The notes beneath the pieces are model-generated. The model did not search any database. It saw only the letters and a program-made list of their open reading frames with translations, and was not told the DNA's origin. A program made the translations under genes and the position numbers. Below are positions 4,897 to 56,181 of a DNA stretch of 64,000 bases, piece after piece (position 1 is the stretch's first letter; every line of letters begins with the position of its first letter). The stretch is from contig CAZBDY010000001.1 of the NCBI GenBank assembly GCA_964490795.1, positions 24,806-88,805 on the forward strand, read 5' to 3'. Source of the DNA: Candidatus Woesearchaeota archaeon (lineage in GTDB: Archaea; Nanobdellota; Nanobdellia; Pacearchaeales; GW2011-AR1).

Positions 4897-4898
4897 TT

Positions 4899-5480: not shown

Positions 5481-5536
5481 ATATAAAAAAGAAAATACTT
5501 GTTTAAATATGTTTTGAATAGTATTTAACAAAAAAT

Positions 5537-5793: not shown

Positions 5794-5795
5794 TT

Positions 5796-7821: not shown

Positions 7822-7822
7822 A

Positions 7823-10083: not shown

Positions 10084-10084
10084 A

Positions 10085-15707: not shown

Positions 15708-15820
15708 TTTGTTACTATTATTAAATAACTAATAGGTTTTTAAGTTTTGTGATTTTTGTTTTTATTTTTCTGCATAAAAAAGTTTATAAACATAATAAGT
15801 TTAACATAATAAGGGATAAA

Positions 15821-16156: not shown

Positions 16157-16518
16157 GCCGTGTATTTTTTGTATCTTTTTACTATAGATTTAATTAATCT
16201 TTGTAAATTCTTTCTAATTAGATAAGCATTTATAAGTACAGGAGGATTTTTATTAATATCAATTGCATATAGAATTGCTTGTCCTTTGTCTGTTCTGTAA
16301 TAAATATCATAATTCTCCTTTTTGCCTTTTCTCAAACATACAAATTCAATTCTTTCAAATTGCGAATAATATTTTTTCAGTAATTTTTCATCAGTATTTT
16401 TTTCTAATAAGGAATATTTATAATGATCTGTTTTACTTAATTTATCAAAAGAACATTTTTTCAGAATTTTTTTAATCTCCTTTATTTTATTGTTATCCAG
16501 AGGAATAATTTCTCCCAT
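16153..16518 (-). CDS. hypothetical protein (weak DUF4258-like)
   Basis: 121 aa, convergent with the previous gene. Confidence 0.25.
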   Translation of the reverse strand: MGEIIPLDNNKIKEIKKILKKCSFDKLSKTDHYKYSLLEKNTDEKLLKKYYSQFERIEFVCLRKGKKENYDIYYRTDKGQAILYAIDINKNPPVLINAYLIRKNLQRLIKSIVKRYKKYTA

Positions 16519-16551
16519 TGATTTTCAAAAGAAAAAGCCATTTATAAAATT

Positions 16552-17514: not shown

Positions 17515-17545
17515 GATTATTTGTATTTAAAGTTATTGCTGTTCT

Positions 17546-17959
17546 TTATTTCCTTCTTATTAAAAAGAAAATTCCTAAACCTGCAATTGCTGTAATTACT
17601 CCCATATATAAGCCGAATTCTGGAATTATAACATTAACTATTGCTACATCCCAATCATCAACAACATTGTCTATAATTGTTCCGGTTTTACTGCCACTCA
17701 TATCCTCTTTTTCAGCATAAACACTTAAGCTATCACCAGAATTACAATCAAATTCAGAATATGTAACTGCATAATCTCCTTCACTATTACTTGTGGTTTC
17801 TTGGACATTACTATCACAAGTAACTTCTACATCAGCGCCACTAATAAGATTACCATCACCATCATAGATTTTTCCTGCAATCATTGTACTAGCACTCACT
17901 AAACTTAAACTAGAAATCACAAACAATCCCAAAATCATTAAACTTAGTATTTTTTTCAT
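17546..17959 (-). CDS. small secreted protein with PEF-CTERM sorting signal
   Basis: Signal peptide MKKILSLMILGLFVISSLSLVSA; C-terminal PEFGLYMGVITAIAGLGIFFLIRRK is PEF plus a TM helix plus basic tail. Confidence 0.55.
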   Translation of the reverse strand: MKKILSLMILGLFVISSLSLVSASTMIAGKIYDGDGNLISGADVEVTCDSNVQETTSNSEGDYAVTYSEFDCNSGDSLSVYAEKEDMSGSKTGTIIDNVVDDWDVAIVNVIIPEFGLYMGVITAIAGLGIFFLIRRK

Positions 17960-18058
17960 ACATAACTTACAAATTACTACTTTAAAAAGATTGTTGTTAT
18001 ATGAGATATAAATTATTTTACTACCTAAGATTAGTTAATTAAAAAGAATTTAATATTT

Positions 18059-19468
18059 TTATTCACAATAATAAATTCTCATATCAATATTCTCATATTG
18101 TATAGAGCAATTCTTAATAATTTTATTGAAATTTTTCATTTGTTCTGGCTTTAATTTAGCTAATGAATAATAATCTGCAATAACATAATACTTGTTAACT
18201 GAGTGAGGCAAATCCTGTTTTTTTCTTATTATTCTAGCTCCAGAGTAAACATCTACTGTTTTGTTATCAGGATTTTGATAAGAAACACTGTCTTGTATTC
18301 TTCCAGTCATAGAAAAATCAAACACATAATCCGGCTTTTTAATATACCACTCAACATTAGGAGAAAACAAAGAGAGAAGAATATTTTCTTTCATATCTTT
18401 AATTAATACTTGAGGAATACTCTTAAAGTCAATTTCAGGAGCAGAATAATCATTATAATTATAATCTATTGGCAAAATTACATTAACATAAGTATAAGGG
18501 AAGATTAAATTAGAAGGAACTATTAATAATGCAAGAAGAGATATCAACATAATCTTTCCATATCTCTCATACAAAAAAGAAATCAATAGAGAAGAATAAA
18601 GAACTAAAGGGAATACAAAAAAATAACTATATCTTAAAGCAAACATATTAAGAAACACTATGCCAATTAAAAGAACAAACGAAGGAACAATTATAAGGAA
18701 AGATAATCTTTTTTTCTTTAAAAAACTCCAAATCAATCCAGGAATAAAAAGAACAAATAAATATTTAATATTACTTACATAAGAAAAATATTTACTAGCA
18801 AAATTAACTGCACTAGAAGCAGATTTTGAAGACAACCCAAGTAAAGATATGAACTTATAAACTAAAGGAATAGCAGGAATAATTGAAAGATATTTTTTCC
18901 ATTTTTTATTATAAATTAAGATATGAAGAATAAAGAAAGGAGCCAAAACTAATCCTGCTATTTGTGTATTTATTGTTATGAAAAACGAGATTAAAGATAC
19001 ATAAAGCCATTTGGGATTATCTTTTGATTTATACAAAAGATATAATGAAAGGAAAAATAACAACTGGAAAAACTGATAAAACCTCGCTTGTCTGGAATAA
19101 AAAACCTCAAGATAAAAAACAGCTGTAAATAGGGCTACAATAATCCCTCCAGGTTTGGAATACTCTTTCCCAATAAAGTAAGCAAGAACAATTGTTAATA
19201 AACCAAAAATAACAGACACAAACCTAGCTAAAAAATCTGTTTCTCCAAATAATAAGAAAAAAGCCTGTAAATAATGAAAAAGGTAAGCCCTTCCGTAAAA
19301 TAATCCTGAATCAAAAATAGGTAAACCTTTATCTAAAATATTTAAACTTGTAATACTAGAAATACTTTCATCTATCCAAAAATTAGGAGATCCTAAAGCA
19401 TAAACTCTTATAAAAAGCGCAAAAAATAATATGAGTATTAATAAGATTATCTCTATTCGTTTTTTCAT
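18059..19468 (-). CDS. GT-C glycosyltransferase (ArnT/PMT, GT39/83-like)
   Basis: First loop motif FWIDES (DE motif) after TM1; more than 10 TM helices. Confidence 0.5.
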   Translation of the reverse strand: MKKRIEIILLILILFFALFIRVYALGSPNFWIDESISSITSLNILDKGLPIFDSGLFYGRAYLFHYLQAFFLLFGETDFLARFVSVIFGLLTIVLAYFIGKEYSKPGGIIVALFTAVFYLEVFYSRQARFYQFFQLLFFLSLYLLYKSKDNPKWLYVSLISFFITINTQIAGLVLAPFFILHILIYNKKWKKYLSIIPAIPLVYKFISLLGLSSKSASSAVNFASKYFSYVSNIKYLFVLFIPGLIWSFLKKKRLSFLIIVPSFVLLIGIVFLNMFALRYSYFFVFPLVLYSSLLISFLYERYGKIMLISLLALLIVPSNLIFPYTYVNVILPIDYNYNDYSAPEIDFKSIPQVLIKDMKENILLSLFSPNVEWYIKKPDYVFDFSMTGRIQDSVSYQNPDNKTVDVYSGARIIRKKQDLPHSVNKYYVIADYYSLAKLKPEQMKNFNKIIKNCSIQYENIDMRIYYCE

Positions 19469-24707: not shown

Positions 24708-25997
24708 ATGAAAGAAAATAGTTATGTATATTTTGAAACTTATGGATGTACAGCTAATCAAAATAATACTGAAATAATGAAATCTCTCTGCTTAGAATCA
24801 GGACTACAAACAACTTCTAATCTAAATATAGCTGATATAATAATTATTAATACATGCATAGTAAAAGGAAAAACAGAAAAAAAGATAGAAAGAAGAATTT
24901 ATGATTTGTTAAAAAATCAGAAAAACAAACCAATAATAGTTGCAGGCTGTATGCCAGAAGTAAGGAAAAACAAACTTCAAAATAAAAATCTTTATTTGTT
25001 AGGAACACATCATTTTAAAGAGATAACAAGATTAATTAAGGCAATAATAGAAAAAAAATATAATCAAGATTATTTTACTGATTTTAAAAATGAAGAAAAA
25101 TTGCTGACAGGAAAAATCCCTCAAAATTCTAAAATATCAATAATACAGATTTCAGAAGGCTGTCTTGGAAACTGCTCTTTTTGTTTAACAAGAAAAGCAA
25201 AAGGAAAATTATGTTCTTATTCACAAAAAAATATTTTAAACCAGATAAAATCAGATTTAAATTTTTGTAAAGAAATATGGATAACAAGTCAAGATAATGC
25301 CAGTTATGGATTAGATTCAGGAAAAAGAAAACTTCCTGAATTATTAAAAGAAATTTTAAAATTAAAAGGGAATTTTAAAATCCGTCTTGGAATGTCAAAT
25401 CCAGAAAATGTTCTTCCTATTTTAGATGAGCTAATTGAGATTTATAAAAACAAAAAAATGTATAAATTTCTTCATATTCCTATTCAATCTGGTTCAAATG
25501 AAATATTAAAAAAAATGAATAGAAAATATTGTATAAAAGATTTCTTAAAAATAGTTAGAAAATTTAAAAATAATTTTCCTAATTTAGTTTTATCAACTGA
25601 CATAATAGTTGGATTTCCACAAGAAACAGAAAAAGATTTTAGCAAAACTTTAGATATAATTAAAAAAACATCTCCTGACTTAATGAATATCTCAAGGTTT
25701 TGGGCAAGAAAAGGAACTAGAGCAGAAAAATTTAAACAAATCCCAGTAAATATAATTAAAAAAAGATTAGAAAAAATATTTAATTTACATAAAAAACAAT
25801 CTTTAGAAAATTATAAAAAATTATTAGGAAAAAAATTAAAATGTTTAGTTAGTCAAAAACAAGAAAACCAATTAATAGCAAGAGATGAAAGTTATAGAAT
25901 AATAATTTTAAACACAAATAAAAAATTATTAGGAAAAAAAGTTAATGTCAAGATAATCAAATCAGGAATACATTATTTAGTGGGAGAAGTTATTTGA
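24708..25997 (+). CDS. radical-SAM methylthiotransferase (MiaB/RimO/MtaB family; likely tRNA ms2-modification enzyme)
   Basis: N-terminal MTTase domain (YFETYGCTANQ...), radical SAM CLGNCSFC, C-terminal TRAM-like domain. Confidence 0.7.
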   Translation: MKENSYVYFETYGCTANQNNTEIMKSLCLESGLQTTSNLNIADIIIINTCIVKGKTEKKIERRIYDLLKNQKNKPIIVAGCMPEVRKNKLQNKNLYLLGTHHFKEITRLIKAIIEKKYNQDYFTDFKNEEKLLTGKIPQNSKISIIQISEGCLGNCSFCLTRKAKGKLCSYSQKNILNQIKSDLNFCKEIWITSQDNASYGLDSGKRKLPELLKEILKLKGNFKIRLGMSNPENVLPILDELIEIYKNKKMYKFLHIPIQSGSNEILKKMNRKYCIKDFLKIVRKFKNNFPNLVLSTDIIVGFPQETEKDFSKTLDIIKKTSPDLMNISRFWARKGTRAEKFKQIPVNIIKKRLEKIFNLHKKQSLENYKKLLGKKLKCLVSQKQENQLIARDESYRIIILNTNKKLLGKKVNVKIIKSGIHYLVGEVI

Positions 25998-26802
25998 TTT
26001 TTTTAAACTGATTCCAAGCCAGCTCAAACATTTGTTCTAATGCTTGAGCAAAAAATTCAGTATTTATCCATATACCAATATCATAAGTAGGATGTATTTC
26101 TTTATCATCCATCAACATAAACATAACTTCTTTTGAATCAACAACAACAAATCTCGCCCTTAATCCATGCCCCTCCATATCTTTAACTTCAGCTACTTTT
26201 GATAATTGTTTTGCAATATTTTTATTATCTTTATCAACAGGAGCAGAGATTCTTATTTTTACTTTCCTTTTTTTAGCTTTTTCTAAACTTGGCATTAATG
26301 TCTCTAATTTTCTATTTAACCCATCTCTAGTTGTAACAATAGTAATAGTTTTTTCAGCTCCTCTTATCATCATATCTAAATGGTTGTATAAATTTTGTCT
26401 TCCTCTCATACTTCCACTTAAATCAGAAGGTTCAATATACTTAACACCATCCCCATATAAAGAAGACAGCTCTTCTAAAACTTCTTCTCCTTTTAATTTT
26501 TCAAGTCTTTTTGATTTTTCATCAGCTTGTTTAGATAAATTTCTTTTAACTCTTTCAATAACTTCTTCTGGTTTTAAAGCAACAAACTTAATTGGTTTTC
26601 CTAATTTCATAACAATAAATCCTCTTTTTTCTAAGCTCTCTAAAATATCATATGTTCTTGATCTAGGAACATCAGAAATATTACTTAACTCTCCGGCAGT
26701 TGCAACCCCTCGAGAAAGCAAAGCAGTCCAAACCTTTGATTCATATAAATTCAAATCAAAGATTTTTCTTATCCTGCTTAAAAATTCATCTTTAACAATC
26801 AT
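25990..26802 (-). CDS. TrmB-family transcriptional regulator
   Basis: N-terminal wHTH LYESKVWTALLSRGVATAGELSNISDVPRSRTYDILESLEKRGFIV; 270 aa. Confidence 0.6.
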   Translation of the reverse strand: MIVKDEFLSRIRKIFDLNLYESKVWTALLSRGVATAGELSNISDVPRSRTYDILESLEKRGFIVMKLGKPIKFVALKPEEVIERVKRNLSKQADEKSKRLEKLKGEEVLEELSSLYGDGVKYIEPSDLSGSMRGRQNLYNHLDMMIRGAEKTITIVTTRDGLNRKLETLMPSLEKAKKRKVKIRISAPVDKDNKNIAKQLSKVAEVKDMEGHGLRARFVVVDSKEVMFMLMDDKEIHPTYDIGIWINTEFFAQALEQMFELAWNQFKKIK

Positions 26803-26836: not shown

Positions 26837-29653
26837 TTATATCTTTTTAAAGGTAACATACACTCTTTTTTCATTAATCTTAAACTCATCAGTATTTTTA
26901 AATGTTTCTTTCTTTTTTTCAGAAATTTTTAATTGACAAGCATTAACTCTTTTTTTCAAAAATTCTTCCTGGTTCTTTAACATGCTTTTTAATTTTTCAT
27001 CAACCATAATTTCAATTTTTATTTTATCTTCTTTAACCAATCCTGCTTTTTTCCTAGAGTTTTGAATTTTTCTTGCTATGCTTCTTGCATAACCCTCTGC
27101 TTCAAGCCCAGGAGTTAATGTTAAATCTAATTTAACTTTAACCTTTTTACCTTTTTTCACAATAACTTTTTTAACATTTAGCTGTCTTTTAATTATCTCT
27201 TTTAAATCTTTATTTAATCTAATATCAGAAACAACTTCAGCTTTTTTTAATGGCCATTTTAATCCCTTTCCTGCCTTATCTCTCTCCCTTAATCCAGCTT
27301 CTATAATCTCTAAAACTTTTTCTATCTGTTTTTCTAATTTTTTATTTATTTTCTTTTCATCTGGTTTTGGAAATGATGTTAAGTGAATTGATTCTTCTTT
27401 TACTATTTTTTCCTGTTTTAAATCCTGCCATATTTTTTCTGTTATGAATGGAGTGATAGGAGCCACTAATTTTATTAAATTAATATAAACTTTTTTCAAA
27501 ACATACTTTGCATTTTTGTCTTCACCCAATCTTTCTCTGACAAACTGAATATACCCTCTTGATAAGTCATTTAACCAGAAATCTTTCAAAGCTCTTGAAG
27601 CTAAATGAGGATGCAAATTTTCTAATTCTGAAATAACTTTTTTTATTAATGAATTTAATTTTGATAATATCCACTTATCTTCTATATTTAATTTCCTTCC
27701 TTCAGAATTTTCAATTAGCTTTGAGATATTAAATAAAATATTAATATTATTTGCTGGTTCTTTTAAAACATTAAATCCAAATCTTAGTTCTTGGCTTGGA
27801 TCTTGCAAACAATAAAACAACCTTAAAGGGCCTGCTCCTACTTTTTCAACAGCATCATCAAACCAAATAGCATTTCCTTTTGATTTGTGCATTTCTTCTC
27901 CTTTTTCATCTTTTAGTGTCTCATAACCAAACAATCTTTTGAAAGGAGCCTTTCCAGTTAAAACAACTGAACTCCAAAATAAAGCATTAAACCACCCCCT
28001 AAATTGTCCAGGCATATTTTCACTTATTAATTCAGCAGGGAACCATTTTTTCCAGTATTTTTTATTTTCTAGATAATTCAGAGTAGAAAAAGGGACAATT
28101 CCTGCATCTAACCATGCATCTCCTACATCTTTAATTCTTTTAACTTCTTTCCCACACTTTTCACATTTAATTTTAATTTCATCTACCCAAGGACGATGAA
28201 TTTCCGGCAAGTTATCAACTTTTTTCTTATTAATTGCTTTTTTCCTTAATTCTTTTAAACTTCCTATAACTTCGATATTCCCACATTCACATTCCCAAAT
28301 TGGAAGAGGGAAGCCCCAAAATCTTTTTCTCGAGATTAACCAATTCCCCATATTATTGAACCAGTCTTTTTGTCTTATTTTCCCATATTTAGGATACCAT
28401 TCAATCTTCTGATTTTCTTGTATCAATTTTTTTCTAAACTTTTCATCACATTTAATATACCATTCATCTACTAATCTAAAAACAAGTTCTTCACCACATC
28501 TCCAACAATGAGGATATCTATGAGGATAATTTTCAATTTTATATACAAATCTTCTTTTTTTTAAATCTTCTAAAACCAGGGAATTTACTTGAGAATGTTT
28601 TTTTAAACTAAACTCATCAAAACCAGAATTATAATTTCCTCCATCATCTAATGGAGAGATGCTGGGGAGATTTTCTTTTTTTCCTAATTCAAAATCTTCT
28701 GCCCCGCATCCAGGGGCAATATGAACAATTCCTGTTCCTTCTTCTTCAGAAGCCAAGTCCCATAATATAACTTTGTGAGGGGAATTTTTTTGTTGTTTTA
28801 AATTAGAATAAGGCATAAGATACTGTTTGTCTTTTAATTTTCTTCCTTTAACTTTTTTTATTATTTGATATTTCCCTTGTAGTTCATTCAATCTTCCTTT
28901 TGCAATCCAATAATAAACTCCCTCTTGTTCAACTTTGACATAATCTAGTTTTTCATTAACAGCAATAGCCACATTAGCAGGTACTGTCCAAGGAGTTGTT
29001 GTAAAAATTAAAAAATAAGTATTGTCTTCATTTTTAACAGGGAATTGCATAAACAATGCCTTATGAATAACTTCTTTATATCCTTCAGTCGCTATATCAT
29101 GTTTTGAGGAAGCTGTTCCGCATCTTCCACACCAAGGGACAACATCTTTTCCTTTGAAAATCCATCCCTTTTCAAAATATTTTTTCATTAAAAACCAATT
29201 ATGTAATTGATTAGAATCAGACATAGTGTAATAAGAATTATCCCAATCCATCCAATATCCAAGTTTTATGCTTTGTTGTTTTTGAATCTCTGAAAATTTT
29301 TCAACTCTTTTTCTGCAAGATTTTACAAATTTTAATATCCCAAATTTTTCAATGTCTTTCTTATTTTTCAATCCTAAATCTTTTTCTTCTCCTCTCTCTA
29401 CCCACAACCCCTGGCAGTCAAAACCGTTTTGATACCTTAAATTATATCCCTGCATTGCTTTAAATCTCTGAAATAAGTCTTTGTAAGTTCTTCCCCATGC
29501 ATGATGCACCCCCATTGGATTATTTGCTGTTATTGGACCATCAAGAAAACTCCAGTTCTTTCCATTAGAATTTTTTCCCTTTAGCTTTTCAAATATTTTT
29601 TTCTTTTCCCAAAATCTCAGAATTTCTTTTTCAACTTCTTGCGGATTATACAT
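26837..29653 (-). CDS. ileS: class Ia aminoacyl-tRNA synthetase, most likely isoleucyl-tRNA synthetase
   Basis: WSFLDGPITANNPMGVHHAWG aligns to IleRS FxFxDGPPFATGxPHYGH; GFDCQGL matches GWDCHGL; NWLISRKRFWGFPLP matches DWCISRQRYWG; KMSKS appears as KMHKSKGN; zinc-knuckle Cys pairs present. Confidence 0.6.
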   Translation of the reverse strand: MYNPQEVEKEILRFWEKKKIFEKLKGKNSNGKNWSFLDGPITANNPMGVHHAWGRTYKDLFQRFKAMQGYNLRYQNGFDCQGLWVERGEEKDLGLKNKKDIEKFGILKFVKSCRKRVEKFSEIQKQQSIKLGYWMDWDNSYYTMSDSNQLHNWFLMKKYFEKGWIFKGKDVVPWCGRCGTASSKHDIATEGYKEVIHKALFMQFPVKNEDNTYFLIFTTTPWTVPANVAIAVNEKLDYVKVEQEGVYYWIAKGRLNELQGKYQIIKKVKGRKLKDKQYLMPYSNLKQQKNSPHKVILWDLASEEEGTGIVHIAPGCGAEDFELGKKENLPSISPLDDGGNYNSGFDEFSLKKHSQVNSLVLEDLKKRRFVYKIENYPHRYPHCWRCGEELVFRLVDEWYIKCDEKFRKKLIQENQKIEWYPKYGKIRQKDWFNNMGNWLISRKRFWGFPLPIWECECGNIEVIGSLKELRKKAINKKKVDNLPEIHRPWVDEIKIKCEKCGKEVKRIKDVGDAWLDAGIVPFSTLNYLENKKYWKKWFPAELISENMPGQFRGWFNALFWSSVVLTGKAPFKRLFGYETLKDEKGEEMHKSKGNAIWFDDAVEKVGAGPLRLFYCLQDPSQELRFGFNVLKEPANNINILFNISKLIENSEGRKLNIEDKWILSKLNSLIKKVISELENLHPHLASRALKDFWLNDLSRGYIQFVRERLGEDKNAKYVLKKVYINLIKLVAPITPFITEKIWQDLKQEKIVKEESIHLTSFPKPDEKKINKKLEKQIEKVLEIIEAGLRERDKAGKGLKWPLKKAEVVSDIRLNKDLKEIIKRQLNVKKVIVKKGKKVKVKLDLTLTPGLEAEGYARSIARKIQNSRKKAGLVKEDKIKIEIMVDEKLKSMLKNQEEFLKKRVNACQLKISEKKKETFKNTDEFKINEKRVYVTFKKI

Positions 29654-30019: not shown

Positions 30020-30745
30020 TTAAATTTTTTCATTTAATATTTCTAAAGCTTCTTGTTCAGTAAAATGCAATTTTCCTGGGATAATTAAACAAAAAGGTTC
30101 CTTTATTTTTGCTTTTTTTAACTTATTTACAGTAGAATAATAGAACTTACTTTGAAAACCCATTCTTTCACAAACTACAATTTTATCTAATTTTACATTA
30201 TTTTTATCTTGTTTTATTGCTTGTTCTAATTGTTCTAAACATTTTTTTAATGACAACCCAATATCTATTAAAATTAAACTATGGGCAGAAATTTTCTTAT
30301 TATTTTTTATAATATTTAAAAAACCTAATGATTTTCCTTTTTGTTCCCATGAAGGCATACTTGTTATTTTTCCAAATTTATATAATTGTAACCCAGTTTC
30401 AGAAACAGCATCAAATATACTTGAATTATGTAAAATTTTATATTTAATCTTTCCCTTTTTACAGCTTAAAATTAAAGAAATATGGGTAGTTGCCATTAAA
30501 GGAGAGCCATAGACTAATAAAGTTATATCTTTACTTTTAGATTCTAATATTAATTTATCTGACTCTACTCCTTCTCTATTAACTTCTATAATTTTTTTAC
30601 CAAATATTTTTTCTAATTGATTTTTGTTATAAGGAAATTTAATAGTATAATTTTCTAAATAAACTTTATCAGCTTTTCTTATTGTTTCTAAAGCTTCTTT
30701 TCCTATACTTTCTAAATTTAATCCTAAACCAATTAAATAAAACAT
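30020..30745 (-). CDS. dph5: diphthine synthase (tetrapyrrole-methylase fold)
   Basis: N-terminus MFYLIGLGLNLESIGKEALETIRKADKVYLENYT is characteristic of Dph5/DphB. Confidence 0.65.
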   Translation of the reverse strand: MFYLIGLGLNLESIGKEALETIRKADKVYLENYTIKFPYNKNQLEKIFGKKIIEVNREGVESDKLILESKSKDITLLVYGSPLMATTHISLILSCKKGKIKYKILHNSSIFDAVSETGLQLYKFGKITSMPSWEQKGKSLGFLNIIKNNKKISAHSLILIDIGLSLKKCLEQLEQAIKQDKNNVKLDKIVVCERMGFQSKFYYSTVNKLKKAKIKEPFCLIIPGKLHFTEQEALEILNEKI

Positions 30746-31685: not shown

Positions 31686-31934
31686 TTATTTTTTTCTTAT
31701 TTTTTCATAACTTTTATATAAAGAAATTAAAGTTACTAAACAGACGAATATACTAAATATTGAAATTATTTTACTAAAAAATAAACTAATCAAAGAAATA
31801 ATAAAAAAGATAGAGATAATTAAAATAAACCACTTTCTTCCTTTTTCAAGTTCATCTTTTGTTAAGTAAGCTAATAAGTAACCTGCTGGAATTGCAAAAA
31901 AGATAATTAATATGCCTAAGATTATATTTATCAT
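31686..31934 (-). CDS. small membrane protein
   Basis: 82 aa, two TM helices. Confidence 0.3.
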   Translation of the reverse strand: MINIILGILIIFFAIPAGYLLAYLTKDELEKGRKWFILIISIFFIISLISLFFSKIISIFSIFVCLVTLISLYKSYEKIRKK

Positions 31935-32752
31935 AGGATATTATCTAAAGGAGACTTTATATTCTTTATTGATGCTTGGGATATTTGGGTATATATTTGT
32001 GTTGTTTTTATATTTGAATGTCCCAGAAGTTTTTGTATTATTCTTAAATCAGTTCCACCCTCAAGAAGATGTGTAGCAAAACTATGCCTTAGTAAATGAG
32101 GATAAACTCTTTTTTTAATTTTAGATTTTTTACCTGCATTTTTAATAATTTTGGCAATTGTTTTTTTAGTTAGTTTTCCTCCTTGATTTGAAGGAAATAA
32201 TATCTCTGAATTATTAAGTTTACAATAGTGTTCAAATTCTTCAGCAAGAGATTCAGGAATTTTAACAAATCTGTCTTTTTTACCTTTTGCAAGATTTATT
32301 TTTATTAATCCTTCTTCAAAATTTATATTATTTAATTTCAAATTAACAATCTCAGAAACTCTTAATCCGCACCCATAAAGAAGTTTAATTATAAGTTTAT
32401 GTTTTATGTTTGAAGTTACATCAATGAGTTTTTTAATTTCTTTAATAGTCAAAATTTCAGGAAGAGTTTTATTTCTTTTTGGATTTGGGATATCTAACTT
32501 TTTTCCCAAAACATTTTGAAAAAAATATTTAATAGTAAAAACATTATGGCTAACAGATGCAGGACTATCTTTTGATAATTTTTTAATAAGAAATTCCTTT
32601 GCACTTTCTTGATTAATCCCCTTATTTTCAGCAAACTCAAGATATTTTCCAACTTGATTTAAATAACCTTTAATTGTTTCTTTAGAATAATTCCTCAACT
32701 TCAAATTTTCTTCAAATTTGATTAACAATTCCCCCATAAATCTTAAAAACAA
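31931..32752 (-). CDS. xerA: tyrosine site-specific recombinase (XerA/XerC/D family)
   Basis: C-terminal catalytic region HLLRHSFATHLLEGGTDLRIIQKLLGHSNIKTTQIYTQ (R..HxxR..Y); 273 aa. Confidence 0.8.
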   Translation of the reverse strand: MFLRFMGELLIKFEENLKLRNYSKETIKGYLNQVGKYLEFAENKGINQESAKEFLIKKLSKDSPASVSHNVFTIKYFFQNVLGKKLDIPNPKRNKTLPEILTIKEIKKLIDVTSNIKHKLIIKLLYGCGLRVSEIVNLKLNNINFEEGLIKINLAKGKKDRFVKIPESLAEEFEHYCKLNNSEILFPSNQGGKLTKKTIAKIIKNAGKKSKIKKRVYPHLLRHSFATHLLEGGTDLRIIQKLLGHSNIKTTQIYTQISQASIKNIKSPLDNIL

Positions 32753-41588: not shown

Positions 41589-41918
41589 TTTTGCGATAGT
41601 GTTCTCTCCTATTTTAATTTTCCCACCCTAAAACTTCATTTTTACTTCTTCGAAAAATCAAAGATTTTTCTCGACCACGTCCTGCGGACTTTCGCACTGC
41701 GGTGCTCAGGGCTAAGAACAGGGCTTAAACAGAAAATCCTTGCAGGATTTTCCCAAATTTTTTCTTTCAGAAAAAACTCTCGAGGTCACTTCGTTCTGCT
41801 CGAGCCCTACGGGTTGTTTAAGCCCGATTCAACGAAATTTTTTGCTCCACAAAAAACTCTGCGCGAGATTAATTTTAGTTATTCTATTCCCCACCCGAAG
41901 GATGTGCCTTAGAAAGAT

Positions 41919-42197: not shown

Positions 42198-42536
42198 GTT
42201 TTTAAGAATGCAAATGCCCTATATAAATATTTCTATATGTAACTACTATTAAAGGATAAAGGCACATCCTCCCCCACCCTTAAAATTAGTCTAAAATTAA
42301 TCTCGCTTGCCACGCCTTGCAGGCTTTCAGAAAATCAAAGATTTTCTTCAGGTCGCTGAACAGCGATTAAAAAGAAATTTCTTGCAGAAATTTCCCATAT
42401 TTTTGCTACGCAAAAACACTCGAGGTCACTTCGTTCCACTCGAGCCCTTCGGGTTGTTTAATCGCGATGTTAATTGCAATATTACTCGGTGGCAAAACAG
42501 CATAAATTTATTAAAGCCCTCTTATTCTAATACACT

Positions 42537-45511: not shown

Positions 45512-46837
45512 ATGGTAACTATAGAGCAAGAAAACCAAGGGCTAAGGTTAGATATCCAAAATTACGATGGATCTAATGGAGAAAGTATATCTGTTGGAAA
45601 TTCCTCACAAAGAGATCCTAGAAACTATTTATTTAATTTTCAAAGAAAGCAGAGTAATCACGGATATACTTCTGGAGAAACTCTCTTTTTTAATGGAGAT
45701 TGTGGTAATAATTTAATCATTTCTACTTATGAATCAAACCTTTTTAAAAATGTAAGGAATGCTTTTGTTTTAGCAAATGAAGACAGAGTTGAAATAAGTC
45801 CAATTGCTAATATTTGGGATGCAATATCTAGGGGAAACAGAATCTTGTCTGGAAAGATTAATTATTTTATTCCTCAGAGAGTTTTATCTAGAGAAAATTT
45901 ACCTTCCGTAGATATTGAACAATTAAAGGAAGAACTAAAAATTAAATATGGGTTTGTTACAATGAATATAAATCCTTTATTAGAAGGAAGATCAAAAAAT
46001 GGAACCTATATTTTGACTCAGGGAAAATCTAAATTTGTTTTAAAATACAGGGGAAATAATGAAGAAAGGGCAGAATCAATTTCTCAAGTATTAGGATCTA
46101 TTGAAGATTACTTTCCAAGAGTCTTCCCAAGAATAGATAAAACCAAGAGTTATACTATTAAAATTGGAGAAAATTATTTTGGATTAGAAGAATTTATTGA
46201 AGCAAAAGAAAAGCCAGATTTAAATGTAGATTATTTTTCTCTATTAGGAGATCACACAGGAAGGCTACACAATTCTTTTTCTTTTTTTCTATCAGAGAAT
46301 CCAAGTTTGACGGAAAGATTACAACGAAGAGATTCTTTTAATGAAGCAAGTATAATCTCAGTATATCTGGATTTAATGAACAATAATCCAAATAAAAATA
46401 GGTTTTTGGTTGATTTTTTAGACGAAATTTTAAGGAAAGGTTTCGTTGAGTTTTTACCAAAATTACCTAAGGCACTTATTCATAGAGATTTGAACTGGTC
46501 AAATATTTTTTGGGATACAAATAAGCCAAAAATAGTTGATTCAGAATCTATTGGAATTTATAGGAGATTAGAGGAACTTATCGCCCCATTACTTTTAGGA
46601 GAAAATATGGCAAGACCTAATTATGCTAAAGGTTCTCTTGAGAGAATGATGGAAAATTATAATGATTCAATAAGTGAACCCCTTATTCAGGAAGAAGAAA
46701 ATATCCTTAGACCATTATTAAAATATTCTTTATTGAAATATTATGTTGTCCGTTCTATTAGGAGAAAAATTGAGGACTCAGACTATTTGGAGATTTTACA
46801 TAAGAATCTAAACGAAATAGGGGGAAGAGATGATTAA
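45512..46837 (+). CDS. APH/choline-kinase-like phosphotransferase with ~150 aa N-terminal extension
   Basis: Catalytic loop LIHRDLNWSNIFWD (HxDLxxxN), metal site IVDSESIG (IDxE-like), N-lobe Lys in FVLKYRGN. Confidence 0.55.
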   Translation: MVTIEQENQGLRLDIQNYDGSNGESISVGNSSQRDPRNYLFNFQRKQSNHGYTSGETLFFNGDCGNNLIISTYESNLFKNVRNAFVLANEDRVEISPIANIWDAISRGNRILSGKINYFIPQRVLSRENLPSVDIEQLKEELKIKYGFVTMNINPLLEGRSKNGTYILTQGKSKFVLKYRGNNEERAESISQVLGSIEDYFPRVFPRIDKTKSYTIKIGENYFGLEEFIEAKEKPDLNVDYFSLLGDHTGRLHNSFSFFLSENPSLTERLQRRDSFNEASIISVYLDLMNNNPNKNRFLVDFLDEILRKGFVEFLPKLPKALIHRDLNWSNIFWDTNKPKIVDSESIGIYRRLEELIAPLLLGENMARPNYAKGSLERMMENYNDSISEPLIQEEENILRPLLKYSLLKYYVVRSIRRKIEDSDYLEILHKNLNEIGGRDD

Positions 46838-47693
46838 CAGAATTCCTTTTGAGATAGACTTCCCTTTTGAAATTTTTGATGATTCCAAAAAGATTGATTT
46901 TAGTAATCCTGATGAGAGAAAAAAGCTTTTTGATAGAAATATTTATCGTTTTTTATATTCTGGAAATAAAAATCCCTTATTAGAAAAAAGAAATAGGATA
47001 TATCAAGGGTTATCTCAAAAAGTCGTAAATTCAATAAATAGAGATTCTCCTTCCCTAGAGGTTTTAAGTTGTTCCATTTTTGGTTCTTCTCTTTTTTCAG
47101 AAAAACCAGGAGATTTTGATTTTTTAGTAATTACAAAAGGAAATGAATTCTCTTTGGAAGAAACAACAATGAATTTAGAGGAAATTTCTTCAGAAGGATT
47201 TAAGAAAAATGAAGAATATAATGTTGGAATCTCTGTTAAAGGAGTAGATAATTTTAAGAAAGGAATTTGCAGTCCTTTATCGAGTGTTCCAGAAGAGTAT
47301 CAAAAACAAATAATCTATCGTACATCAAGTGCATTATTCAGAAGACACATACCTCTTTTAGGATATGATTTTTTAAAAAATAGAGAATTATTCCAAAGAA
47401 ATTTATATGCTCAAGCATCTGATTTGCTTATTAATACCTTTGATTTATATTATAATGATAATGAAAGGATAAAATTATGCCCTGATAAAAGAGCAAATAA
47501 AATTTTGTCTCGTATCTATGAAGCAGTCACTTATTTGAGTTTTGCAGAAGATAAGCCAGAAATAGGGCAATTAAGAAAACAAATTTCCAATTCTATTGGT
47601 TTTGGACTACCTCTTAGAGAAACGAAAAGGCTTTTTAATAGGGTAGTCTCTATTTATAATAATAAAACAGACAAAAAACCTAAAAATGAATAA
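46830..47693 (+). CDS. pol-beta-superfamily nucleotidyltransferase with helical C-terminal domain
   Basis: hG[GS]x9-13DhDh motif in LSCSIFGSSLFSEKPGDFDFLVIT; 287 aa; start overlaps the upstream stop by 8 nt. Confidence 0.5.
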   Translation: MINRIPFEIDFPFEIFDDSKKIDFSNPDERKKLFDRNIYRFLYSGNKNPLLEKRNRIYQGLSQKVVNSINRDSPSLEVLSCSIFGSSLFSEKPGDFDFLVITKGNEFSLEETTMNLEEISSEGFKKNEEYNVGISVKGVDNFKKGICSPLSSVPEEYQKQIIYRTSSALFRRHIPLLGYDFLKNRELFQRNLYAQASDLLINTFDLYYNDNERIKLCPDKRANKILSRIYEAVTYLSFAEDKPEIGQLRKQISNSIGFGLPLRETKRLFNRVVSIYNNKTDKKPKNE

Positions 47694-49386
47694 AATATTT
47701 GCTTTTGATTATGATGACACCCTTGCTGAACATGGCGGAAAAATAGATAGAGAAATGTCTGGAATTTTATCAAAAATGATCTTAGGGGGACATAAAATCT
47801 CTATAATTACTTCTAGAACTATGTATTGGTTAGAAAAGAATAATATAAATATTTTAGAAATGATTTTTCCAGATTTTTCCAGTTTATCTAATCTAGACAT
47901 TAAGAGAATAAAAGAAAATTTCATCCTTTATACTGGAAGAGGTAACGAAAAATTTTCCCCTGAAATTTCTAATGATAAATTTAATTTTTATGAAAAAGTA
48001 TCTTATAGAAAATCTCTCACATTAGAACAAGTCTTTAAAATTCAAGAGATCATTAAACAAGAATTGCCTAAAAAAATATTTTCTGGAAAAAATTATACTA
48101 AACAATTTTCTTCTAGAGATCTTCAGAGCATATTGAGAGTAATTATGCGAATTGAGAAAATTCAGAATTCGTCAAAGAATAAGATATTATCAAATATTAA
48201 ATATAAATTAAACAAAATAGGTAATTTATCCAAAATTCTTTTAGAGATTAACGGGAATTATATTAGTTTTAGTTTTAAGAATAAATCTTTTGCAATTAAA
48301 GATTTATTAAAAAATAATCCTTCATACCATCTAGATTATTATGGAGATTCTCCATTAGAAAACGATAAACCCATCTTTGATTTAGCAAAAGGTAAAATGA
48401 AAAATAAATTAAGTTTTATTTGCGTAGAAAACCCCGTCCATACTTTAAGTTTAGTTAAGGTTCATTGTGGAGCACCCCAAAATGAATCTGGCAATATTTT
48501 GGATGTTTTGTCTATTAAAGGAGCAAGAGAAAATATAAAAGAAAGAATAAAAGATTATTGGAAATCAATAGGCTTACAGATATCTTGGATCTCTCCCATG
48601 TTGTCTATTCTAGAAAATAATCAAGATAATGAAAATTTAGCCGTTTTTAAAATTAGAAATAAATTTCCTTCTTTGGGAAATAAAAAGAGCTTAGATTATT
48701 CTAGAAAATTAATCCAATTTAGGAAGAAGAAGATAAAAAATTTAGCTAAGAGAATAAATGGTTTTTTAATCAAGGGTTCTGTAGCAGATATTGGGGGCAG
48801 GGCAGATGATTTCATGGAAGAGATATTAAAAATAAATAATTCCGTAAAAAAAGCTTATGTTACAGACATTGGGGCGTTTTCAGAAAGATCTAAGAATCCA
48901 AAAATAGATTTTATTGTTCAACCTTCTTTAGTCAAAACTCCTTTCTTAGAAAATCAATTAAACAATCTTGTTCTTTCTTTAATTCTGCATCATATGGATA
49001 ATTTAGATCAAGAAATATTTATTAAACATCTTGTAAGTATTTTGAGGGCTAAAGGAAGATTAATTCTTATTGAAGAGGGTTATCCTGAAAGTTGTCTTAA
49101 TGAAAATTTATCTCAGAATATTAAACAATTTTTATCTTTTGAAAAGAACATAAAAATGAAAATAATTTCTTTTTATGATTGGTTTGGGAACAAAATAATG
49201 AGAAATAGAGATAATACCGCATTAACTTTTAATTATAAAACAATTGAAGAGTGGGAAGAAATATTTAGTAAAGCTGGATTGACATTGATTCATTCTGAAT
49301 TTATTGGGAAAAAGCCTAAACATTTAGATTTATATCCTCCAAAAATAATCATGGTCTTTGAAAAAATGGAGAAAGATAAAAAATGA
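47686..49386 (+). CDS. fusion protein: N-terminal HAD-IIB (Cof-like) phosphatase plus C-terminal class I SAM-methyltransferase-like domain
   Basis: HAD motif I FAFDYDDTL (DxDxT), motif II ISIITSRT, motif IV YYGDSPLEND. The C-terminal half has ADIGGRADDF (degenerate GxGxG) and LILHHM...GRLILIE, typical of a Rossmann MTase. Confidence 0.5.
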   Translation: MNKIFAFDYDDTLAEHGGKIDREMSGILSKMILGGHKISIITSRTMYWLEKNNINILEMIFPDFSSLSNLDIKRIKENFILYTGRGNEKFSPEISNDKFNFYEKVSYRKSLTLEQVFKIQEIIKQELPKKIFSGKNYTKQFSSRDLQSILRVIMRIEKIQNSSKNKILSNIKYKLNKIGNLSKILLEINGNYISFSFKNKSFAIKDLLKNNPSYHLDYYGDSPLENDKPIFDLAKGKMKNKLSFICVENPVHTLSLVKVHCGAPQNESGNILDVLSIKGARENIKERIKDYWKSIGLQISWISPMLSILENNQDNENLAVFKIRNKFPSLGNKKSLDYSRKLIQFRKKKIKNLAKRINGFLIKGSVADIGGRADDFMEEILKINNSVKKAYVTDIGAFSERSKNPKIDFIVQPSLVKTPFLENQLNNLVLSLILHHMDNLDQEIFIKHLVSILRAKGRLILIEEGYPESCLNENLSQNIKQFLSFEKNIKMKIISFYDWFGNKIMRNRDNTALTFNYKTIEEWEEIFSKAGLTLIHSEFIGKKPKHLDLYPPKIIMVFEKMEKDKK

Positions 49387-50120: not shown

Positions 50121-50618
50121 AACTTTCGCTTTTCGTAGCGACTTCTTTTAGAAAAAGAAGCAAAAGCGAGTCTCTCCACCTCAAAAAATTTATTTTCTTT
50201 TTAGAAAAAAGAAACAAAAAAGAGCGCGTGCCCTAAAAGATAGTCTTCTACGAAGATAATTTATATAATAAAACTCAAACTCAACTCTGCGGTTTTTTCT
50301 TTTCAAGAAAAAATCCTCGGGGACGTCTTGCAGACTTTCGCTTCTCTCACCCTCTTTTTTCGGGACACATTTTTCCCAAATTTTTCCTTCGGAAAAACTC
50401 TCGAGCGTTCCACAATTTTTCCAGCTCTGACTTCGTCGAGGGAAAAATTTCTACACCTCGAGCCCTACGGGTTTTTTAATCGCGATGTTCAACTCAATAA
50501 ATTTCTGGCGGTAACTCAATACCCCTCCCTCCTGCATTACCTAATTAATTCTAAAAATTATAAAAGAAAAGATTTATATAGTATTTCTTACATATCTTAC
50601 TATTAAGAGGAAAATAAA

Positions 50619-53292: not shown

Positions 53293-53497
53293 TTTAACCT
53301 CCCAATAAGTTTATGTTATTAGTAAGATTATCTTATTTATAAACCTTTCGAAATCCCCCTTTTCTTTAAAAAAAGCACACTTCACTCTAATAAATAACCC
53401 GAAAGAATATTATTTCAGATTAATAAAAATATCATTCAAAAATTCAAACTAACAAGAATAACAACAAACTTAAATATTACTATTTTATATTTATATT

Positions 53498-54304
53498 ATG
53501 AACCTAATAGACATCCACTCACATCTAGATCATAGCAAATTTAAATCAGACTTAGATAAAGTTATTGAAAGAGCAAAAAAACAAGGAGTAAAAAAAATAA
53601 TAACTTCAGGAGTAAATTCTTCAACAAACAGATTAATTTTAGAAATTCAGAAAAAATATCCTGAAATAATTGAATGTTCTTTTGGAATCTACCCCCTAGA
53701 TGCTTTAGCTTCTGAAATGAATCAAGGAGAATCTTCTGGCTTTGTAAGAGATATTGAAAAATTTGATTTAAATAAAGAACTAAAATGGATAGAAAAAAAT
53801 AAAGATAAATGTTTGGCAATAGGAGAAGCAGGATTAGATTATAAGTTTACTAAACAAGAAAAATTAAAACAAGAACAAAAAAAGATATTTGAAAAAGTTA
53901 TTAAGTTAACAGAGAAAATAAACAAACCAGTAATAGTACATACAAGAAAAGCTGAACTTGATTCAGTAGAAATGTTAGAAAAATCAAAAATAAAAAACAT
54001 AATTCTACATTGTTTTAATGGAAGAAAACATTTAATTAAAAGAGCAGTTGAAAATAAGTGGTATTTATCAATACCTCCAATTATAACAAGGCTTCAACAT
54101 TTTCAAATGCTAGCTGAAATAGTACCTTTGACTCAGATTTTAACAGAAACAGATTCTCCATATTTATCACCAGTTTCAGGAGAAAGAAATGAATCTTCCA
54201 ATGTAAAAACCACAATAAAGGAAATAGCAAAAATAAAAAACCTTTCTGAGGAAAAAACAGCAGAACAAATATATAAAAATTTTAAAAACATATTTTTAAA
54301 ATGA
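53498..54304 (+). CDS. TatD-family metal-dependent hydrolase/DNase
   Basis: MNLIDIHSHLD... with His/Glu/Asp metal ligands (HTRKA, HCFNG, ETDSPY). Confidence 0.65.
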   Translation: MNLIDIHSHLDHSKFKSDLDKVIERAKKQGVKKIITSGVNSSTNRLILEIQKKYPEIIECSFGIYPLDALASEMNQGESSGFVRDIEKFDLNKELKWIEKNKDKCLAIGEAGLDYKFTKQEKLKQEQKKIFEKVIKLTEKINKPVIVHTRKAELDSVEMLEKSKIKNIILHCFNGRKHLIKRAVENKWYLSIPPIITRLQHFQMLAEIVPLTQILTETDSPYLSPVSGERNESSNVKTTIKEIAKIKNLSEEKTAEQIYKNFKNIFLK

Positions 54305-54855
54305 AATCAAAAAAAATACAAGAAATAAAACAAAACATATCTTCTTTATTAAGTAATATCTCAGATAATATTGATTCTTTGTATGAGATAGCTACAAAAG
54401 ATGAAAAAACAAAAATTTATAATTATAAATTTTTTTCAGAATTATTTAGCATAGAATTTGAAAAAGCAAAAAGAGGACAAAAACTTTCACTTGCAATATT
54501 TGATATAGATTATTTTAAAAAAATAAATTCAAAATATGGACATATTAAGGCAGATGATTTTTTAGTAAAAATAGCAAAAATAATTCAAAATAGCATAAGA
54601 AAATCAGATATTTTAGCAAGATTTGGAGGAGAAGAATTTATTTTATTATTGCCTCTGACTTCAAAAACAAAAGCTAAAAAAACAGCTGAAAGAATAAGAA
54701 GACAAATTGAAAAAAATTTTAAAAAATACAACATAACAATTTCTGGAGGGATTTCACAATACAAGAAAAAAGACACTAAATCTAATTTTAAGAAAAGAGC
54801 TGATAAAGCATTATATAAAGCAAAAAAAGTGAGGAACAAAATGGTTTGCTTATAG
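54301..54855 (+). CDS. stand-alone GGDEF-domain protein (putative diguanylate cyclase)
   Basis: LAIFDIDYFKKINSKYGHIKADDFL ... RFGGEEFILLLP (GGEEF active-site variant) ... ITISGGISQY; 184 aa with no sensor domain. Confidence 0.55.
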   Translation: MKSKKIQEIKQNISSLLSNISDNIDSLYEIATKDEKTKIYNYKFFSELFSIEFEKAKRGQKLSLAIFDIDYFKKINSKYGHIKADDFLVKIAKIIQNSIRKSDILARFGGEEFILLLPLTSKTKAKKTAERIRRQIEKNFKKYNITISGGISQYKKKDTKSNFKKRADKALYKAKKVRNKMVCL

Positions 54856-55376
54856 TTAAAATGAATTTAATTAATGAAATAAAATCTGGAAAAGTTTTCA
54901 TATATCCTACGGATACAGTATACGGGTTAGGGTGCAATGCATTAAATAAGAAAGCAGTAGAAAAAATCAAAAATATTAAAAAAAGAAATAAAAATAAACC
55001 TCTTTCTATAATATCTCCAGATTATAAATGGATAGAAAGAAAGTGTATCATTAATTTGGATTTAAAAAAATATCTTCCTGGGCCATATACCCTTATTTTA
55101 AAAAAGAGAGATAAAAATTTTCTTAAACATATATCTAAAACAGAATTTTTAGGAATTAGGATTCCTGACAATGAGTTTAGTTATAAAGTCCAAAAATCAG
55201 GAGTCCCTTTTGTAACAACCTCAGTTAATAAGTCAGGAGAGAAGCCTGCATCTCAAATAAAGGAAATTCCTGAAGAAATAAAAAGCCAAGCAGATATTAT
55301 CATAGATAAAGGAAAGTTGTCTGGAAAACCCTCTACCTTGATTATGGGAGAGGAAAAAATAAAAAGAGACAGATAA
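54846..55376 (+). CDS. L-threonylcarbamoyladenylate synthase (Sua5/YrdC/TsaC family)
   Basis: FIYPTDTVYGLGCNA ... PLSIISPD ... VTTSVNKSGEKP YrdC motifs. Confidence 0.7.
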   Translation: MLIVKMNLINEIKSGKVFIYPTDTVYGLGCNALNKKAVEKIKNIKKRNKNKPLSIISPDYKWIERKCIINLDLKKYLPGPYTLILKKRDKNFLKHISKTEFLGIRIPDNEFSYKVQKSGVPFVTTSVNKSGEKPASQIKEIPEEIKSQADIIIDKGKLSGKPSTLIMGEEKIKRDR

Positions 55377-55383: not shown

Positions 55384-55761
55384 CTAAGAAAAATAAAATT
55401 CTTCATTTAAATCATCACTATGAGCTATTAAATCAGTTGCTGTGATTATTCCTATTAATTCACTTTTCTTCATAACTGGTAGTCTTTTTATTTTATTTTT
55501 AGACATAATAAAAGCAGCATCATCTATACTTTGATTGTGTTCAATTGATTCAACTGTTTTTGACATAACTTTGGAAACACTTTTGTTTGAATTTGAAAAA
55601 TTTTTCATAATATCTCTTTCTGTAATTATTCCTGAAATTTTCTTTCCTTTAATAACAATTAAACTTCCTATATTTTCATCAGACATTATTTTAGCTACCT
55701 GTTTTAAAGAAATATTATCTTTTACAACCTTCACCTTACTCATTATTTCAGAAACTTTCAT
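55384..55761 (-). CDS. CBS-domain pair protein
   Basis: Two CBS repeats (VSEIMSKVKVVKDNISLKQVAKIM..., VMSKTVESIEHNQSIDDAAFIM...). Confidence 0.55.
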   Translation of the reverse strand: MKVSEIMSKVKVVKDNISLKQVAKIMSDENIGSLIVIKGKKISGIITERDIMKNFSNSNKSVSKVMSKTVESIEHNQSIDDAAFIMSKNKIKRLPVMKKSELIGIITATDLIAHSDDLNEEFYFS

Positions 55762-56101: not shown

Positions 56102-56181
56102 CGCCCCAACCAGGAATCGAACCTGGACGCCCAAAGGGCCAAGCACTCCAAGCTTGTGCAATACCATTATGCGATTGGGGC
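56102..56181 (-). tRNA. tRNA-Ser (anticodon GGA), type II
   Basis: Manual fold: acceptor GCCCCAA/UUGGGGC, anticodon stem CAAGC/GCUUG with loop UUGGAGU, variable arm GCCCUUUGGGC, T-arm CCAGG-UUCGAUU-CCUGG, discriminator G. Confidence 0.65.

Follow-up and report, generated by a model that had tools for sequence, protein, structure and literature searches.

A predicted stand-alone diguanylate cyclase with a putative coiled-coil stalk is encoded by a long-inherited gene of a DPANN archaeal lineage

The closest described counterparts of the protein reported here are bacterial diguanylate cyclases with the same layout, a helical stalk, which dimerises in those enzymes, followed by a GGDEF domain with an allosteric product-inhibition site (I-site). 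They are SiaD of Pseudomonas aeruginosa (PA0169, structure 7e6g) and DgcB of Caulobacter (6ttr). In archaea, the GGDEF, EAL and PilZ domains of cyclic di-guanosine monophosphate (c-di-GMP) signalling are considered essentially absent by reviews up to 2023, and matches in metagenome-assembled genomes (MAGs) need a contamination check (PMC5847659, PMC10086821, PMC10249747). One archaeal GGDEF domain was known to Galperin et al. 2018, who added a warning about contamination (PMC5847659). More than 300 BLAST matches, many of them from Asgard and DPANN archaea, were reported and left unanalysed by Braun et al. 2021, whose assays of Haloferax and Sulfolobus were negative for c-di-GMP (PMC8646023). 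Archaeal GGDEF proteins 'need to be confirmed in archaeal contigs' (Romling 2022; PMC10086821). The present work concerns a gene for a 184-residue GGDEF protein on a contig of a Candidatus Woesearchaeota archaeon (assembly GCA_964490795.1, contig CAZBDY010000001.1). The whole stretch analysed, 64,000 nucleotides from position 24,806 to 88,805 of the contig, is referred to as the window. The gene truly belongs to a DPANN lineage (Nanoarchaeota/Nanobdellota, Pacearchaeota-Woesearchaeota group), in which it has long been inherited, and its product is probably an active c-di-GMP synthase. The enzyme type is well known and the lineage is unexpected; no paper describing this GGDEF family was found in the searchable literature.

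An earlier note, made from the letters of the window alone, had described the product as a stand-alone GGDEF protein. Its assignment lies far above the threshold of the Pfam hidden Markov model PF00990 (E-value 1.2e-38, 132.9 bits for a cut-off of 23.8), with residues 32-177 aligned to profile positions 2-157 of 161. The NCBIfam model TIGR00254 is matched with 136.6 bits against a cut-off of 37.4. All the motifs quoted in the note are found, namely DIDYFKKIN (residues 68-76), GH...D (80-85), RFGGEEFILLLP (107-118) and SGG (148-150).

The conservation of these motifs was followed in an alignment of 40 relatives and in a regular-expression survey of 120 relatives. The first motif has invariant D68, D70, F72, K73 and N76 in the alignment and is kept as DxDxFKxxN in 120/120 sequences of the survey. 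G80, H81 and D85 are equally invariant and GHxxxD is present in all 120. The roles of the DIDYFKKIN residues are assigned by homology to PleD, and N76 and D85 are taken, by motif, to be the equivalents of PleD N335 and D344. The D344 position holds an aspartate throughout the survey and the serine of Hypr-type enzymes in no case. In the catalytic A-site, G109, G110, E111 and E112 do not vary in the alignment; the survey gave GGEEF in 117 sequences and GGEEI or GGEEL in the other three. The I-site residues R100 and D103 are also invariant (40 relatives), and the spacing RxxD-5aa-GGEE[FIL] is found in 120/120; the window protein reads RKSD-ILARF-GGEEF, its RxxD standing five residues before the A-site. 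At the junction between stalk and domain, the counterpart of the bacterial DxLTGLxNR hinge, residues D34, K36, T37 and N41 are invariant (40 sequences), as is K175 in the C-terminal helix. The catalytic apparatus is therefore, as far as residues can tell, complete and GTP-specific. The note had left the choice between a minimal cyclase and a degenerate nucleotide-binding module and had proposed to examine the I-site and A-site. With RxxD and GGEE[FIL] intact in all 120 relatives, and the magnesium-binding and guanine-specificity residues likewise kept, the minimal cyclase is retained and the degenerate module is unsupported.

The protein has no sensor domain, no transmembrane domain and no signal peptide. 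The first two absences had already been pointed out; what had been overlooked is a conserved coiled-coil helix spanning residues 2-32. Because this stalk precedes the GGDEF domain, the protein is not a bare domain. In the AlphaFold2 model (pLDDT 93.9, pTM 0.82), DSSP assigns helix to residues 2-32, followed by the GGDEF fold. Stalk positions 6, 9, 13, 16, 17, 20, 24 and 27 are occupied by I, L, M, V or F in 97-100% of 40 relatives, and position 30 is hydrophobic in 65% of them. The hydrophobic periodicity has a power of 1.53 at 3.5 residues vs at most 0.15 at periods of 2-3, 4, 5 and 7. A Foldseek search of the PDB returned more than 50 chains with a probability of 1.00, all of them from diguanylate cyclases, and its top matches are active enzymes. 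The domain, a palm-like alpha/beta cyclase fold, superposes on these chains with a root-mean-square deviation of 1.0-3 A. The top matches (SiaD, DgcR, WspR, GCN4-WspR, PadC and DgcB; TM-score relative to the query 0.80-0.90) are mostly structures composed of a stalk plus a GGDEF domain, and the model also superposes on the stalks of SiaD 7e6g, GCN4-WspR 3i5c and DgcB 6ttr. A profile search of PDB sequences gave DgcR (3e-46) and PleD (1.6e-39).

The protein belongs to a large family. A word-indexed search returned 899 significant matches, the best 120 of which were examined, so that the family comprises at least 120 clusters. Each of these 120 is a stand-alone protein, 165-233 residues long and 51-67% identical to the window protein, whose identical entry P0001 is excluded from the range. 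Their named sources are mostly Pacearchaeota, Nanoarchaeota, Nanoarchaeia, Woesearchaeota or 'archaeon'; odd labels among them are Flavobacterium (P0013) and Bacillota. An exhaustive search of representatives clustered at 50% identity, of which about 440,000 are GGDEF proteins, listed some 17 stand-alone clusters of the family type among the best 150 matches. At least three family members were found among 80 loci listed in a scan of GTDB genome contigs, which was keyed on the generic pattern ARFGGEEF and gives no estimate of prevalence among GTDB species. A profile search with the stalk only returned just 26 short gene fragments and was uninformative on family size. In a neighbour-joining tree, 43 family members formed a clade to the exclusion of the 77 closest bacterial GGDEF domains recovered (bootstrap 186/200). 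Between the same pairs of genomes, GGDEF identity amounts to 52-64%, vs 39-41% for isoleucyl-tRNA synthetase (IleRS), 38-42% for arginyl-tRNA synthetase (ArgRS) and 50-57% for Dph5. The GGDEF protein is more conserved than IleRS and ArgRS of the same genomes, which points to strong purifying selection. Median genome sizes in the host lineage are 0.74-1.4 Mb (bioRxiv 10.64898/2026.05.13.725050), and because the genomes are so small, dispensable genes are unlikely to persist in them.

The genomic position of the gene is conserved as well. Eleven loci were compared: the window, seven family-member contigs (up to 539 and 505 kb) and three loci from GTDB genomes; individual loci are designated by L numbers where they have to be told apart. 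The shared order is [ArgRS] ... TrmB - IleRS - Dph5 - small open reading frames (ORFs) - DTD2 or TatD -> GGDEF -> (CBS) ... RNase HII - SMC, and the Dph5/DTD2-or-TatD/GGDEF neighbourhood is common to L004 and L082-L088. DTD2 is the archaeal D-aminoacyl-tRNA deacylase. It is the usual neighbour of the family, occupying the upstream position or the one beside it in 8 of the 11 loci, and TatD takes the upstream position only in the window and L083. In L003, a contig labelled Woesearchaeota, the DTD2 -> GGDEF pair lies beside aIF2-gamma. The most parsimonious account is that the gene was acquired from bacteria once, long ago, and has since been passed on vertically in the DPANN lineage. The absence of a recent insertion had been argued earlier from a 4-nucleotide overlap with the TatD gene. 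This overlap exists, as ATGA, and synteny conserved in at least ten genomes together with the monophyly of the family makes the case far stronger.

Could the gene nevertheless be bacterial, having entered through faulty assembly or binning or through a recent insertion by a mobile element? Contamination is a worry raised for archaeal GGDEF matches in general (PMC5847659, PMC10086821). The records of some relatives bear the labels Flavobacterium, Bacillota or Omnitrophota. Upstream of the gene, the window contains an integrase (XerA) and what is probably a 23-kb island, and its signal recognition particle (SRP) RNA (5537-5793, minus strand) was called Bacteria_large_SRP in the first Rfam pass, with 62.3 bits at a gathering threshold of 60. 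Under permissive filters, the same RNA (5534-5796 in its widest extent), which has a deletion of about 40 nucleotides, scores 74.8 bits with Archaea_SRP. The archaeal match was hidden at first because this score is below the model's own threshold of 96.5. A bacterial contig was thus rejected on this point, the archaeal model scoring higher and the protein markers being in agreement. Three of these exceed curated cut-offs: Dph5 (TIGR00522, 180.6 bits vs 114.3), archaeal XerA (XerA_Arch, 241.2 vs 220) and the archaeal/eukaryotic-type MtaB (e-MtaB, 426.1 vs 314.7). Dph5 modifies EF-2 of archaea and eukaryotes and is a marker restricted to these two domains. The window also encodes two archaeal type IV pilin N-terminal domains, a TrmB regulator and a pyruvoyl arginine decarboxylase. 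Archaeal-specific markers lie on both sides of the GGDEF gene on the same contig, and the premise of an archaeal genome holds. Two of the labels of the relatives can be accounted for too: L004 (DATJPO010000045.1, 'Omnitrophota bacterium') and L087 (the P0098 contig, 'Bacillota bacterium') carry Dph5, TrmB and archaeal DTD2 in the archaeal order, and because they share this archaeal gene context they are mis-binned archaeal contigs. The G+C content of the gene, 0.25, equals the background of the window (mostly about 0.25-0.29), no defence system was matched by the GGDEF protein in PADLOC, and the conserved position, monophyly and neighbour overlap described above all speak for residence. A bacterial origin of this kind is effectively refuted.

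For the resident archaeal gene, the reading we prefer is that of an active c-di-GMP synthase, which is likely from the conserved residues and the structural model. The stalk would form a parallel coiled-coil homodimer, setting two GTP-loaded GGDEF domains face to face, and two GTP would be converted to c-di-GMP and two pyrophosphates, in the manner of SiaD, DgcB and GCN4-WspR, a fusion that is constitutively active. Synthesis would probably be constitutive, because a sensor domain is lacking and the translation of the gene is coupled to that of a housekeeping neighbour, which is TatD in the window and DTD2 in other loci. Binding of c-di-GMP to the I-site would cap the output, and the pool would then be kept at a set point instead of being switched as a signal. 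Regulation could be added by a protein that binds to the stalk, as SiaC does on SiaD. A role at the cell surface or in attachment is the default guess and is backed by no linkage found in the loci studied.

Several observations weigh against active synthesis. c-di-GMP has been detected in no archaeon according to a 2023 review (PMC10249747; see also PMC8646023). Dimerisation through the stalk is something we infer from its periodicity and by analogy with known enzymes. R178, one of the two putative phosphate-binding residues of the C-terminal helix, is present in the window protein, and the closest subclade (P0002-P0005) has K or M instead. The partners of a c-di-GMP pathway, whose search the earlier note had called for, were looked for with Pfam in practically every window ORF of at least 120 residues, with a six-frame motif scan and with Rfam. 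The 64-kb window gave no match to EAL, HD-GYP, PilZ or MshEN domains or to a riboswitch for c-di-GMP. In the related loci, which amount to about 200 kb, Pfam lists and Rfam showed neither the riboswitch nor an EAL, PilZ or MshEN domain; for riboswitches of the c-di-GMP-I and c-di-GMP-II classes, the Rfam result covers the window and L082-L088. Nothing conserved thus emerged in the window or the related loci. L088, a locus of one archaeal MAG, encodes (5137-5787, minus strand) a 216-residue protein of the HD-GYP family 4 kb from the GGDEF gene (HD_5, 28.7 vs 27.2), which keeps the metal ligands H...HD...H...HHE...D and has HPY in place of GYP. It is sporadic, with about four close relatives in 5.8 billion proteins. 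This protein may be a lineage-restricted c-di-GMP phosphodiesterase; as a conserved partner it was rejected for its degenerate GYP, its few relatives and its absence from the window and the other loci. An HD protein of L083 proved to have a generic HD domain only. As long as neither a reader nor an eraser is known, the cyclase makes up only part of a pathway, the missing components of which may lie outside the window and the approximately 200 kb of related loci searched.

The scarcity of partners has a bearing on the three other readings that were considered. The protein could make a different product, such as cyclic GMP-AMP (3',3'-cGAMP), cyclic di-AMP (c-di-AMP) or linear pppGpG, or act mainly as a GTPase or ATPase like the GGDEF domain of GdpP. 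The products of GGDEF domains are known to vary, as illustrated by Hypr GGDEFs and by the ATPase activity of the YybT/GdpP GGDEF (PMC10249747, PMC8646023), canonical c-di-GMP partners were not found nearby, and DPANN archaea are reported to be without the c-di-AMP cyclase DacZ (PMC12699388), which leaves a niche. With an aspartate at the PleD D344 position in 120/120 relatives, invariant Asn76, a canonical GGEEF and an invariant c-di-GMP-binding I-site, such a change of product is unlikely. That the protein only binds nucleotides, as a catalytically silent sensor of c-di-GMP or GTP or as a scaffold, would agree with the many bacterial GGDEF proteins acting as receptors through their I-site and with the failure to detect turnover partners in the loci searched. 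Receptor-type GGDEFs, however, have degenerate A-sites, whereas GGEE, the magnesium ligands and the substrate-binding residues are here invariant among members only about 50-65% identical. Apart from the GGDEF protein, moreover, these loci showed no candidate that could produce the ligand, and a silent sensor is highly improbable. Finally, c-di-GMP or the protein itself could serve episymbiosis, being delivered to or sensed by the host and promoting attachment or biofilm formation. Nanobdellota have a reduced metabolism and depend on hosts (bioRxiv 10.64898/2026.05.13.725050), and diguanylate cyclase genes were found enriched, 1.7-fold more frequent, in sediment-attached ultra-small MAGs (Gios et al. 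2023; PMC9938205). Internal receptors and phosphodiesterases were not found in the loci searched, and the window encodes type IV pilus components as well as numerous glycosyltransferases of the cell surface. Since the protein has neither signal peptide nor transmembrane segment, no locus shows linkage to secretion genes and the intact I-site suggests intracellular homeostasis, we regard a host-directed function as quite improbable. Active synthesis of c-di-GMP inside the archaeal cell remains the preferred reading. The wider proposal that Nanobdellota DPANN make c-di-GMP and either read and degrade it with proteins foreign to the bacterial toolkit, possibly of the CBS-pair type, or use it at the symbiont-host interface is a tentative one that we consider rather doubtful.

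The features of the locus are collected in Table 1. The TatD and GGDEF genes are probably co-transcribed because the stop codon of the former overlaps the start codon of the latter (ATGA). The ATG of the TsaC/Sua5 gene (54861) lies 5 nucleotides past the GGDEF stop, the listed ORF starting at a TTG (54846), and TatD, GGDEF and TsaC/Sua5 form a co-directional cluster of three genes. A TATA-like element (CTTAAATATT) is located about 20-29 nucleotides 5' of the TatD start (within 53460-53497), with no obvious leader; its placement would fit a leaderless archaeal transcript of the cluster. Orthologues of the CBS-pair protein (52-57% identity) are encoded just downstream of the GGDEF gene in L082, L083 and L088, members of the subclade to which the window belongs, and are absent from L084-L087. 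CBS pairs are known receptors of c-di-AMP (PMC10249747), and by analogy the neighbouring protein is a candidate ligand-binding partner, to be taken as a lead only.

Table 1. Positions of the GGDEF gene, its motifs and its neighbours in the window
Feature	Position	Strand	Description
TrmB-family regulator	25990-26802	-	Synteny anchor across 8 related loci; missing only from L088
IleRS	26837-29653	-	Synteny anchor across 8 related loci; missing only from L088
Dph5	30020-30745	-	Upstream anchor; orthologues (50-57% identity) upstream of GGDEF in L004 and L082-L088
TatD-family hydrolase	53498-54304	+	PF01026, 228.9 bits; stop overlaps GGDEF start
GGDEF gene (predicted diguanylate cyclase)	54301-54855	+	184-residue ORF: coiled coil and GGDEF domain
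N-terminal helix	54304-54396	+	Residues 2-32; predicted parallel coiled-coil dimerisation stalk, about 4 heptads
DEKTKIYN	54400-54423	+	Residues 34-41; stalk-to-domain junction; family consensus DEKTGLYN
DIDYFKKIN	54502-54528	+	Residues 68-76; putative Mg2+-binding Asp(s) and guanine-reading Asn76
GHIKAD	54538-54555	+	Residues 80-85; Asp85 predicted guanine-specific, PleD D344 position
RKSD	54598-54609	+	Residues 100-103; RxxD, predicted allosteric product-inhibition site (I-site)
GGEEF	54625-54639	+	Residues 109-113; predicted catalytic A-site
AKKVRN, K175...R178	54823-54834	+	Putative phosphate-binding Lys/Arg of the C-terminal helix; PleD K442/R446 equivalents
TsaC/Sua5-type L-threonylcarbamoyladenylate synthase	54861-55376	+	PF01300, 139.6 bits; TIGR00057, 145.9 vs 123.2
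Stand-alone CBS-pair protein	55384-55761	-	125 residues; PF00571, 88.4 bits; convergent with the cluster
tRNA-Ser(GGA)	56102-56181	-	Downstream synteny marker; also downstream of GGDEF in L083 and L085

Other elements of the window and of the related loci deserve a description. Between Dph5 and TatD, the window has about 23 kb (30746-53497) where the corresponding gap in syntenic relatives measures about 0.6-6.3 kb. This stretch, probably an integrated island or a variable region, encodes the archaeal XerA (31931-32752), a CopA-type P-ATPase, hemerythrin, FtrD-like and DsbA-like proteins, a helix-turn-helix protein of MarR/TrmB type, NAD synthase, PvlArgDC, a C39-like peptidase and a PIN/MazE pair. 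It also contains three large ORFs without Pfam match (45512-49386), and its G+C content reaches 0.35. A GC-rich intergenic repeat of about 72 nucleotides (CTCGAGGTCACTTCGTTC..CTCGAGCCCTACGGGTTGTTTAA...) occurs there in three copies (41757-41828, 42397-42468 and 50415-50486), the second and third being 61% and 82% identical to the first; a small RNA, a miniature inverted-repeat transposable element or a terminator module are possibilities. Short hairpins of the TTTTTGCTACGCAAAAA type are found at 40851, 41839, 42400 and 45195. In the related loci L085 (11708-11885, minus strand) and L086 (11103-11273, minus strand), the Rfam tRNA model is matched end to end (1-71) over 171-178 nucleotides, a length that points to some 100 nucleotides of inserted sequence or intron; the call comes from Rfam, ARAGORN making none by default. 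Such introns are typical of archaeal tRNA genes.

Towards the beginning of the window, an archaeal type IV pilus-like locus (1356-5531, minus strand) encodes a T2SSE/PilB-type ATPase, in which no MshEN domain was found, and two Pilin_N proteins. Beside it is a large surface-glycan cluster (6856-19468) with four glycosyltransferases, a flippase, two PMT_2-like proteins and a protein of the exosortase/archaeosortase family. Both loci are plausible attachment machinery, with no link to the GGDEF gene shown. A function of the GGDEF gene in anti-phage defence was also considered and rejected: PADLOC gave no match for its product, and a match of TatD to QatD reflects the shared TatD fold, no QatABC genes being present.

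Synteny, monophyly and a full catalytic machinery together confirm, for one lineage, an archaeal GGDEF protein that is not a contaminant. With its 184 residues, the protein is a tractable means to ask whether an archaeal enzyme makes c-di-GMP, and the question that follows is what reads and removes the signal when the bacterial components are not apparent. If Nanobdellota do use c-di-GMP with novel readers or at the host interface, theirs would be the first c-di-GMP pathway of an archaeon, with novel effectors. The analysis also flags mis-binned 'bacterial' records that carry family members, and the annotation of the SRP RNA is a trap by which DPANN contigs could be misassigned to Bacteria.

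Among characterised enzymes, SiaD is the best Foldseek match (E-value 7.6e-17, TM-score relative to the query 0.86), DgcB 6ttr also scoring high, and the alignment to the SiaD model of NCBIfam begins at residue 19 and so covers part of the stalk. SiaD and DgcB are nonetheless only 25-31% identical to the window protein, the host of which is an archaeon. SiaD requires its activator SiaC, encoded in the siaABCD operon, whereas no such genes are present at the window locus, and DgcB has an additional N-terminal region. The window protein is not a SiaD orthologue, since it reaches 142.1 bits for an equivalog cut-off of 290. The engineered GCN4-WspR (3i5c), a zipper fused to a GGDEF domain in about 200 residues, is aligned by the profile at positions 14-191, zipper included. 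It illustrates that a coiled coil alone suffices for an active, product-inhibited diguanylate cyclase, although its stalk is artificial and unrelated in sequence. The stalk of natural WspR is controlled by a phosphorylated REC domain, which the window protein does not have. PleD, WspR and DgcR (1w25, 3bre and 6zxm) are 30-37% identical over the catalytic domain, with the A-site, magnesium, guanine and I-site residues conserved; they are REC-GGDEF response regulators, an input absent here. The other equivalog scores are likewise below their cut-offs (PleD 143.9 vs 474, DgcR 121.6 vs 500, DgcA 132.3 vs 370). Because the scores are so far under the thresholds for SiaD, PleD, DgcA and DgcR, the family is a new subfamily and not the orthologue of any characterised enzyme. 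More distant systems have the palm-like cyclase fold in common with it. The Hypr GGDEF cGAMP synthases (GacA/Bd0367) are distinguished by a signature serine (GacA S348) that is absent here. The Cas10 palm model (Cas10-Cmr2_palm2, PF22335) is matched with 26.4 bits, under its cut-off of 27, and the neighbours are housekeeping genes rather than a CRISPR or defence context. GGDEF proteins had been attributed to archaea before, namely CAJ37382 of Methanocella arvoryzae, a REC-(inactive GGDEF) protein of Ca. Micrarchaeum and the BLAST matches from DPANN and Asgard archaea (PMC5847659, PMC8646023). In contrast to these cases, which were isolated, inactive or uncurated and suspected of contamination, the family described here is large, monophyletic and syntenic, with intact catalytic residues.

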